This document shows, piece after piece, positions 3,001 through 6,000 of a stretch of 49,695 nucleotides of DNA (position 1 is the stretch's first letter; the number at the start of each line of letters is the position of its first letter). The position numbers are program-made. This DNA is from a virus (Duplodnaviria; Heunggongvirae; Uroviricota; Caudoviricetes): IMG/VR virus record IMGVR_UViG_2718218305_000004; one strand, 5' to 3'.

Positions 3001-6000
3001 TTTCATTTTTTATCCTTAGTGAAAGAAAGACCCTTGTAAATGGCATAAATGCAGGGCGGGGTCAGAAACGCCAGTGCAAAGCCAGAAGTAACTGCTATCG
3101 TATCCTTCATGGATATAAGGAACGGAACGAGTAATCCGTAAATGCATGCGATAATTGCCAGTAAAATTACTATTGTGAAATACAGTCTCATTGGTATGTG
3201 GTATCCCGATATTTTTAACTGACAGACAGCGCAATAAAGAGAATAATGATTTCTGTTATTGTCAGTACTGTGGCAAGGATTAAAAGCAGTTTTACTCTGC
3301 TTAATTCACGGTTGTTTTTCATATAAATGGTTAGTAAAAAACGGAAGAATTATATTCTTCTTAATATTTAATGTGTCACTGGCCTTCTGGCATACCATGA
3401 GTATTCAGGTCGTTAATCATTTCATCCAGAAGGAGTTCAAGCCCTTCTCGCCCCATGTCTGAAACAATGAAACCTTTATCTGGGTATGTAATGAGCATTT
3501 TCTGATAAAGAAACAGCGCTCTACCCATTCCTTCTGCCTCGCCGTATTTTTGAATTAAATTCCATTCAATATACTGCTGTAAGGCAAACCGAATGGGGCC
3601 GGGATATATCGTCATAACCCCATGCTTCCCGTTATATATTACGGCGCGATCTGTTGTTCCGTGTTCATTCGGGACATCAATTGTGCCGTTCTTGTCTTCT
3701 TCTTCGTTGATGAATGTCGTCACATACAACCATCGCCACTGGGCAACCTTCATCTCAACCGGAAGTTTTCCCAGTAATCCTGCTTCGTCAGCTTGCGCGA
3801 GACACTGAAGGATACGTAAACCTCGCACATTAGGAGTATCGAATTCTCCAGCATCCAGACGGCGTATGGCGTCGTGATAATCAATAGTCATACTGCCTGT
3901 TTGTATACCATTGGCTGTTGCTTCAGCCTGGAATTCAGCGTATTGCATGAAATTTATTCCTCATCTTCATCTGCTGGTGCAATAACGTCATATCCTGCCT
4001 TTTCTGCAATAAACAGGAATGTTGAAAGATTTCTACAAATTCATCGTCATGAACATGACGAATTAATATTACTTTCCCGTTTTTGATGGTCAGCAATACT
4101 CTGGTTTGTTCGTGTTCTGCTGTTTTCTGATGCATTATTATCTCCCGTATGCTTTACGCAGAAACAAGCAGGCAATATGCATGTGATTTTTCCCGTGTTG
4201 TGCAATAAGGCAGGCTGTTTTGTGTGATGCCTTATGTTTTATAAAAGTCATAATAAAACCTCCTGTGGATTAAGTGTGTGATAATCCCCGGCGATTAAGC
4301 CGTAATATAGTATCTGGAGATGACTTGTTCTATTTAACTGGATAGTTCTTTTTCAGCTGCTGCTTCAGCATAGCAACGTGCAAATTCAAGAACTTCATCA
4401 CCTGTTCTTTTTATTGCGTCGTTGTCTGACATTTGTAATACGATAACTGCGCATAATAAATTATGGATATTGTTTGCAAAGGAATCCGGTGCCAGGCATA
4501 AGCCTTCATACTTATCATGGATATTGCCAGTCATTGTTGCTGCTCCTTTGCTTCTGATTTTCCCGTTAACAACCACATCAGGTCACAATTAAGCGCACTG
4601 GCCAGTGGTACTATATGATCAGCAGGAACTTCACAGATGCCGCATTCCCAGTCGTTTATGGGGTCACTGTAGGTATGAATCATGCGGGCAAGATCAGATT
4701 CGGTTAATCCCAGCTTTGTACGGGCGCTTTTGATGCGTGCGCCAATACTTTCCGCATGGACTTCAGTCGTATTTACACGAATAGCTGACTCGCTGTTTTT
4801 TTCACTTAGTAGAGAAAGCGGATCGCATCCCAGGACGTTTGCCAGGGGGATAAGCATGCTGATGGTTGGCTCGAACTCTCCACTCTCCCATTGCAGAATA
4901 ATCTCTTCGTCAAGATCGAGTAGTCTGGCTAGTTCGGTAGTCGTCAAGCCGCAGGCTTCACGTTTGGTGCGTATGCAGGCTATCTTGTTGCCTGATCGGA
5001 TAGAATGTTGTTGTTTTGTCGATGCGATCGCTAAAGCATATTCATGAGTAAATTCTAGCACATCAAACCCAACCTCTTTTAATCGCGTATCATCTAGGAG
5101 GTTGAAGGTGCGAACAGCACTGAGCAGGTTTGCGATGGTTAATGCAAAAGAATCGAGATCTAAATCATCACATAAAACCTTGTTGTAAGTATTGAGGCTA
5201 CATGTTTTTGGTGTTGTTTGTAAGGCTTCCATATCATCACCATGCAATTCTAAGTTGAAGTTAATCAATATATAATTGATGGTGAGATATTATGTGTCAG
5301 GAAAACGACTGTCAATTAAAAATTGATAAACTTGATTTTTTTGTGATGGATGACCAATAATTTAATTTAAAATCAATAACTAACCAAATCTGTTGATATT
5401 GAATGGTACAGATGAGATTACTTTTGACTGGATATAGAGCAGCGCCATTCCCTCTTTTTCGATGCTCCATGGCTGATAGTTGGGATTGTCTGATAAGACC
5501 ATGATCTTGCTTCCAATTTTTTGAAGTCGTTTGACGTAACATTCGCCATCAAAGCAAAATGCATAAATGCCATCGCCGTCAAAGTAAGTTACTGTTTTAT
5601 CTAAAAACAGTAAGTCTCCCGGGGAGATTGTTGGGGCCATGCTGTCCCCTCTGGCGTTACCGATTTCTATGTTCTTGAATGCTCTGTTACCGACCAGGCG
5701 GCGGGCATATTCAGGATCAAGTTCTATTGAGCGTACTACATCAATTAGATCTCCCCGTACATGAGTTCCGTCGCCGCAACTGAATTCAACATCCAGTACA
5801 TTGAACACAACGCTGTCTTCTCTTGTATGGTGTTTTTCAGCTGAAGAGAATGTCGATGAGGCATCTTCACCCAAAAACCAGGATTGTGGATAACCACTAA
5901 TTACTGATAGCTGTGCAAGTTTATCGCTTCTGGGAAACGTCTTTCCTGTAGTCCAGTATTGTACTGATTGCGCGCTTACACCCAGCTTACGGGCTAGTTC

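Follow-up and report, generated by a model that had tools for sequence, protein, structure and literature searches.

Three small genes in the putative early-left operon of a lambdoid Shiga-toxin prophage

The DNA analysed here, referred to as the window, is the whole 49,695-nucleotide (nt) stretch of the caudovirus record IMGVR_UViG_2718218305_000004, and all positions refer to it unless another locus is named. It carries three consecutive open reading frames (ORFs) on the minus strand: a 37-amino-acid (aa) ORF at 4138-4251 (gene A), a 66-aa ORF at 3935-4135 (D', an altered copy of gene D) and a 190-aa ORF at 3376-3948 (gene G); the letters are those of the fuller arrays of related phages described below. 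A preliminary description of the window had given these coordinates for an overlapping three-gene operon; the coordinates are correct, and conservation marks the ORFs as genuine genes. Comparison of sequences identifies the window as a lambdoid Shiga-toxin (Stx) prophage. Prophages of E. coli O145:H28 RM12761/RM13516, O111:H- 11128, O26:H11 and O157:H7 strains and the Stx2a phage Stx2_EH2201 match region 3200-4600 at 100% identity, and in O111 11128 the prophage adjoins a DUF72-family gene, yecN and cmoA. The evidence presented here favours, at a probability of roughly 60%, the reading that an early-left operon includes the three ORFs as accessory genes, consecutive and each dispensable by itself, and that they do not form an autonomous module.

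Genes A, D and G

Gene A encodes a basic product (isoelectric point (pI) 10.3). Its reading frame is open in six diverged loci, and both alternative frames of the alignment hold stops. The ratio of nonsynonymous to synonymous substitution (dN/dS) is 0.06-0.26, with 12, 5 and 21 variable columns at the three codon positions (six loci, synonymous sites saturated). The strong ribosome-binding site attributed to this ORF in the preliminary description was found as the Shine-Dalgarno (SD) sequence AGGAGG, read from the sequence at 4264-4259 with 7 nt separating it from the ATG at 4251, and is kept as GGAG in all six aligned loci. A tblastn search detected homologues in 36 phage records, phiP27, Fels-1 and phages of Cronobacter and Klebsiella among them; those in phages of Salmonella, Cronobacter and Klebsiella are recognisable at 54-62% aa identity. 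These comparisons indicate that the 37-aa ORF, missed by the PGAP annotation, is a genuine conserved gene.

A stop-to-start overlap of the first two genes had been described at TAATAATG. No overlap is present there: the TAA stop of gene A (4140-4138) is followed by 2 nt and then by the ATG of D at 4135. The final codons of gene A (GGGAGATAA) hold the SD of the next gene. The same arrangement was seen in each of five cargo variants, in which the stop of A (GGGAG/GGGAA-ATAA) directly precedes the start of whichever gene follows and the last codons of A form its SD, which suggests translational coupling of A to the following cargo gene. Upstream of A lies a conserved non-coding block at 4283-4305 on the minus strand, TTACGG(C/T)TT(A/T)ATCGCCGGGGATT (window letters TTACGGCTTAATCGCCGGGGATT), whose 13-nt core does not vary among six loci though synonymous sites of the coding sequence are saturated. 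A 4-bp hairpin, CGGC/GCCG, falls within the block. Conserved RNA structure was considered for this leader and rejected (RNAalifold covariation term -0.14, a double change in one pair only), and Rfam gave no match within 2900-6300.

The abutting stop and start, the use of the last codons of A as the next SD in all five variants and the conserved leader block would also be expected if A were mainly a regulatory leader ORF, whose translation, together with the upstream RNA block, controls cargo expression while the peptide has no separate function. This is considered rather unlikely. The peptide is under purifying selection, the protein having been kept through many synonymous changes, and its homologues are recognisable in phages of three genera; both observations argue for a functional protein rather than a mere leader. 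The weak covariation signal also speaks against the leader interpretation.

The second ORF, D', is a frameshifted copy of a 60-aa acidic-tailed protein of the family phrog_340. Alignment with strain 2011C-4251 and phage Stx1_14040 places a 1-nt deletion, GG to G, at 4033; native residues 1-34 only are retained, the phrog_340 profile matches D' at residues 2-34 only (9.7e-10), and PGAP flags the gene as 'frameshifted' in O111 11128. The intact product is 60 aa (MHQKTAEHEQTRVLLTIKNGKVILIRHVHDDEFVGNLSTFLFIAEKAGYDVIAPADEDEE). In the intact relatives its TAA stop, corresponding to 3956-3954, precedes the ATG of G by 5 nt, and D itself contains the SD of G, GAGGA at 3962-3958. The 14-nt overlap of D' and G noted in the preliminary description is thus present at 3935-3948 but arises because the 1-nt deletion frameshifts D, and it is an artefact of that deletion. 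Between clades the D family has a dN/dS of ~0.18, which supports the 60-aa family as a genuine gene; judged by the same alignments, the copy in the window is a pseudogene. Of 5426 complete E. coli genomes, 11, belonging to several serotypes, carry the exact frameshift allele, each with 100% identity, and the 66-aa product is on at least 1000 contigs of a large protein collection. D has been broken independently in strain 95_0274, beside an intact 193-aa G. The predicted model of D, a beta-hairpin, a strand, a helix and a disordered acidic tail, is poor (predicted local distance difference test (pLDDT) 65.5) and no structural neighbour of it was found. The idea that G repeats a beta-hairpin-plus-helix unit of which D is one copy was discarded (hhalign probability 0.2%).

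Two further features of D were observed. The acidic tail (window 3954-3975) differs in length among strains, with DEDEE, DEDEDEE and DEDEDEDEE among its forms and product lengths of 60, 62, 64 and 66 aa (P0044, P0193 and P0195), and this (Asp-Glu)n variation agrees with 6-nt length steps among the BLAST matches. A near-perfect palindrome, TCGTCATGAACATGACGA, occurs at 4044-4061 within the D coding sequence, roughly 10 nt away from the site of the frameshift; the terminator scan flagged it on the plus strand.

Gene G encodes an acidic protein (pI 4.7; family median 4.86) that matches the phrog_1515 profile over residues 1-189 (1.9e-92). An exhaustive profile search recovered 116 representatives of the family at E <= 0.001, mostly of 190-220 aa, and the members that were placed taxonomically belong to Enterobacterales. 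A search for related loci from a close alignment yielded just three, likewise of Enterobacterales. With a family dN/dS of ~0.14, the comparisons indicate that the 190-aa family is a genuine gene. The copy in the window carries a 1-nt deletion between 3384 and 3383 (GAAGCGCC to GAAG-GCC) that swaps the C-terminal ...EAPVTH for ...EGQ, so that the conserved APVTH becomes GQ. The AlphaFold2 model of G is confident and predicts an α/β protein, the last residues of which have low pLDDT.

As had been remarked in the preliminary description, none of the three products belongs to a recognised family. Searches of Pfam, NCBIfam, PADLOC and PHROGs with A, D, G and their neighbours returned for A, D and G just two PHROG families of unknown function, phrog_340 for D and phrog_1515 for G. 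The profile hidden Markov model and structure searches that had been proposed as a check matched no characterised family or fold. The model and sequence of G gave no match in PDB, BFVD, Pfam, NCBIfam or PADLOC, and PDB sequence and profile searches with G and D gave none. Pfam was likewise without a match for 48 diverged G homologues, and PADLOC returned just two isolated weak matches (E ~0.004) for 48 family members. Three larger proteins that contain the G domain (P0073, P0158 and P0100) hold no Pfam domains, and a fourth candidate, P0174, was dismissed as a spurious match to an Ig-repeat protein. A literature search on these proteins and families, PF24732, DUF5406/DUF4222 and phiP27 found nothing functional. 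Outside phages, G occurs in early operons of P4-like satellites or integrative elements, where it lies in runs of small genes that precede a D5- or DUF927-type primase gene, and its upstream neighbours there are unrelated to D.

Several Klebsiella phage records, among them MF695815, MK416014 and MN166823, label G homologues '2-polyprenylphenol hydrolase / flavodoxin oxidoreductase'. Neither profile nor fold evidence for that label was found, and it is probably a propagated annotation error.

Two separate 1-nt deletions, one in D and one in G, raise the question of whether this cargo is decaying and non-functional in the prophage, D being a pseudogene and G crippled by loss of its C-terminus. 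The terminal His of G is conserved in >=90% of 48 diverged family members; ribosomes on D' would run 14 nt beyond the G start codon and may disturb its translation; and G of the window compared with that of Stx1_14040 has a dN/dS of 0.52 on a short branch. However, the 190-aa form of G is abundant (clusters of 176, 52 and 76 member sequences) and also occurs beside intact D, a second E. coli sub-clade, of the Stx1_14040 type, likewise lacks the PxxH end, and the last residues, with their low pLDDT, may not be structural. Loss of function of the D-G cargo is accordingly regarded as a doubtful account of the locus.

Fuller arrays in related phages

Array architectures were determined by tblastn and blastp across the fetched loci. 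CharmingMan and the Klebsiella phage ST16-OXA48phi5.3 have the order A-B-C-D-E-F-G, with B of 74, C of ~120, D of 84-89, E of 72-73, F of 137-146 and G of 192 aa. FDAARGOS_944 and O103 12009 have A-C-D-E-F and lack G; loci L009 and L014 have F-G; and the window clade and phiP27 have A-D-G. Related phages thus hold up to four extra genes between A, D and G, or lack the 190-aa gene. In distant BLAST matches the A segment alone (window 4135-4307) is found at 87-93% in prophages with other downstream genes (loci L007 and L008). By these comparisons gene A is the conserved backbone, or head, of a variable early-left array, upstream of a variable cassette, and A-D-G is a reduced version of the fuller array and not a dedicated system.

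The closest parallel is the Stx2e phage phiP27, in which L06 and L07 (NP_543058 and NP_543059) and an unannotated ORF at 4443-4553 are orthologues in the same order, likewise placed between the cI and helix-turn-helix (HTH) genes and the SPFH lipoprotein, xis and int genes. Identity to the window is 71% for G, 53% for D and 78% for A. In contrast to the window, D of phiP27 is intact and G retains the C-terminal APVTH; the annotation is of hypothetical proteins only. CharmingMan, ST16-OXA48phi5.3 and Salmonella phage Fels-1 likewise have A and D homologues downstream of the repressor with the gene order kept, and the first two also have G. They differ in having the extra genes B, C, E and F (the last of 130-146 aa) between A and G, which the window clade has lost or never had.

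Gene E of the fuller arrays, of 72-73 aa (L007 2236-2454, L019 3328-3549 and L020 4706-4924), encodes a protein with the Pfam ParE_like (PF24732) toxin domain (1.5e-17, above the cut-off). It has a GTG start and overlaps the 3' end of D. D lies immediately upstream of this gene, which suggests that D is a small binding or neutralising partner protein. E is absent from the window, where D is directly followed by G. As a separate observation, D and E in the related phages may be an uncharacterised toxin-antitoxin-like pair.

A toxin-antitoxin function of the small genes of the window had been among the suggestions of the preliminary description. In its explicit form, D would be the antitoxin and G the toxin of a type II pair, possibly with A as a third component. 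The small gene precedes the large one, the intact allele has 5 nt from stop to start and an SD within D, as in an adjacent coupled pair, and D has a disordered acidic tail. In relatives D directly precedes and overlaps a gene with a ParE_like toxin domain and may be antitoxin-like there. Comparable cases are paaR2-paaA2-parE2, a three-gene toxin-antitoxin system from a prophage of E. coli O157:H7, and ParE-type modules in that they consist of small co-oriented prophage genes, and D relatives are placed directly before a ParE_like-domain gene. For D and G themselves, however, the evidence points the other way. An identical G (WP_001365075.1) stands beside a frameshifted D in O111 11128 and an intact D in 2011C-4251; the frameshift allele is carried by complete genomes of several serotypes and is widespread among contigs, as given above. 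D is broken a second time in 95_0274 while G is intact, and the loss of D in two lineages beside an intact G argues against such a pair. G is also found without D in satellites and other phages, and D without G elsewhere; G resembles no toxin family or fold; and no promoter of the pair's own was found, D starting 2 nt after the stop of A. An operon silent in lysogens would tolerate the loss of an antitoxin, a caveat that softens the argument from frameshifts. Taken together, a D-G toxin-antitoxin pair is very improbable, and the toxin-antitoxin-like lead of more interest is that of D with E in related phages.

Transcription of the early-left region

On the minus strand the gene order is cI, a promoter-like site at 5315-5287, an HTH gene, a 66-aa gene, A, D, G, membrane and SPFH genes, DUF5406, xis and int. 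A, D and G therefore lie between the repressor with its pL-like promoter and xis-int, on the same strand as int, as is the case for lambdoid early-left genes. The promoter-like site, a sigma-70 type TTGACA-17-TAATAT, scored 10/12 in the promoter scan, the best score on the minus strand and the sole one in an intergenic position, between cI (5380-6099) and the HTH gene (4531-5268). Palindromes flank it, and a 26-nt block at 5326-5351 has a counterpart of 77% identity between cI and cro, at 6104-6129. The repeats and promoter resemble an OL/pL region, in which the operators are putative. No terminator-like site was found by the terminator scan on the minus strand between this promoter and gene A. 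We infer that A, D and G are distal genes of a repressor-controlled early-left operon.

Nearer to the genes, the -10-like TATATT reported upstream of the first ORF is present at 4309-4304, but with its best -35 it reaches only 8/12 by hand count, below the scan threshold of 9/12, and it is unconserved in the diverged clade, which has TTTATT or TTTATC at this site. The scan called no promoter between 4140 and 4340. The palindromic hairpin reported after the last gene is likewise present, as an AT-rich hairpin with a 7-bp stem at 3360-3344, followed by CGTTTTTT (the whole element spanning 3360-3336). It is no better than chance: its folding energy is -4.9 kcal/mol (z = -0.92), 33 of 200 shuffles fold as well, and the terminator scan did not call it. 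It is nearly identical downstream of G in APEC E19035 although the genes are ~75% identical, and is at best a weak terminator-like element of a conserved downstream flank.

An alternative reading is that A, D and G form a moron expressed in the lysogen, for superinfection exclusion or anti-phage defence, from a promoter of its own in the A leader (TATATT, 4309-4304). In its favour, conserved sequence borders the variable locus of the cassette, much as at known prophage defence hotspots, the A leader shows unusual conservation, a hairpin and T-run follow G, and the downstream membrane and SPFH genes are typical cargo of the lysogenic-conversion type. Against it, the scan called no promoter in the leader and the candidate -10 hexamer is not conserved, PADLOC gave no match for A, D and G and just the two weak ones among G-family members, and frameshifts in D and G are tolerated. 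In addition, satellites carry their G homologues in early replication operons, away from the known defence hotspots beside int. A lysogen-expressed moron is on this evidence quite unlikely, and exclusion or anti-defence roles of A, D and G are possibilities. Nothing in the evidence gathered supports a toxin-antitoxin or defence role for the three genes.

The preliminary description of a three-gene operon was right in that the genes are co-oriented, tightly packed and in the early region of a prophage. No promoter of their own was found, A belongs to the backbone, and the gene sets of relatives vary, and for these reasons they are not a three-gene unit. The preferred reading is instead that of individually dispensable accessory genes in a longer transcript. 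Transcription would most likely start at the CI-controlled pL-like promoter beside cI (5315-5287) and run through the double-HTH and 66-aa genes into A, D and G, whose products would be made after induction or infection and not in a quiescent lysogen. A would head a mix-and-match array, its last codons supplying the ribosome-binding site of the following cargo gene, and D and G would be two of up to six cargo genes, the only two retained by the window clade. Of the steps in this account, the reality of the genes, the frameshifts, the layout of the arrays and the lack of known homologues are shown. The weakest step is a guess: that G, an acidic soluble protein of unrecognised fold found in temperate phages and P4-like satellites, acts early in the lytic programme by binding a protein of the host or of a defence system. 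That both G and A are early-expressed proteins binding host or defence proteins is put forward with low confidence.

Several points weigh against this account. The early timing and the pL origin are deduced from sequence. A weak internal promoter may lie upstream of A, given the TATATT at 8/12 and the strongly conserved leader block. The palindromes near the pL-like promoter could be operators of the HTH protein and not of CI. Finally, the hairpin and T-run after G suggest that some transcripts may end there, which would make a shorter unit from the HTH gene to G.

The best-known counterpart is the pL operon of lambda, with its exo-xis accessory genes, comprising ral, cIII, kil, ea8.5, ea22 and orf60a/61/63/73. 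As in lambda, the genes of the window lie between the immunity region and xis-int, are transcribed towards int, are small and packed, and are mosaic in their presence and dispensable (the lambda side being general knowledge). No sequence or profile similarity to the lambda accessory genes was detected, however, and a double-HTH regulator stands here where lambda has N. Acidic early anti-restriction proteins, such as Ocr and ArdA, are known from mobile elements; G resembles them in being acidic, in its presumed early expression and in its presence in several kinds of mobile element.

The genes are ordinary accessory genes, unannotated or annotated as hypothetical, from the early-left part of a Stx prophage that has been well sampled; two of the three are damaged here. 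The useful outcome lies in the corrections: the overlap is a frameshift artefact, the 37-aa ORF a real gene and the three genes no unit. Two leads emerged, namely a 190-aa family of ~116 clusters with a confident but unmatched predicted fold, common to phages and satellites, and a small acidic-tailed family repeatedly coupled to a ParE_like gene. Either could prove to serve in host takeover, in anti-defence or as part of a toxin-antitoxin system in medically important phages from E. coli strains that produce Shiga toxin. The stronger proposal, that G (phrog_1515) founds a family of unrecognised fold used early by temperate phages and P4-like satellites of Enterobacterales against a host or immune factor, and that D (phrog_340) is a new type of small neutralising partner or antitoxin of ParE_like proteins, is speculative and, as a whole, unlikely.

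Neighbouring genes of the prophage arm

The cI-like gene at 5380-6099 was identified from gene annotation and profile matches as encoding an XRE/S24 repressor. The gene at 4531-5268 encodes a double-HTH regulator (Pfam HTH_3, 2.4e-15; PHROG match), and is followed by the 66-aa gene at 4334-4534 (phrog_4587), which is a paralogue of the N-terminal domain of the regulator. The two share 48% identity over 44 aa (tblastn) and have reciprocal PHROG matches, to phrog_4836 and phrog_4587. The product of the 66-aa gene may be a decoy or modulator of the double-HTH regulator.

Downstream of G, at 2179-3191 on the minus strand, an SPFH/Band-7 lipoprotein of 275 aa is translationally coupled to a 62-aa membrane protein with two transmembrane segments (phrog_1130), and the pair is found together across several prophages. 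An unannotated hydrophobic ORF of 35 aa, MKNNRELSRVKLLLILATVLTITEIIILFIALSVS, lies between G and the 62-aa membrane gene at 3215-3322 on the minus strand. It has no obvious SD, is kept at 82-85% aa identity in APEC E19035 and phiP27, and could be a small membrane peptide. Further along, between xis and DUF5406, PGAP annotates a truncated DUF4222 pseudogene (L001 3432-3536, corresponding to window ~1631-1735), a further sign of gene decay in the same prophage arm.

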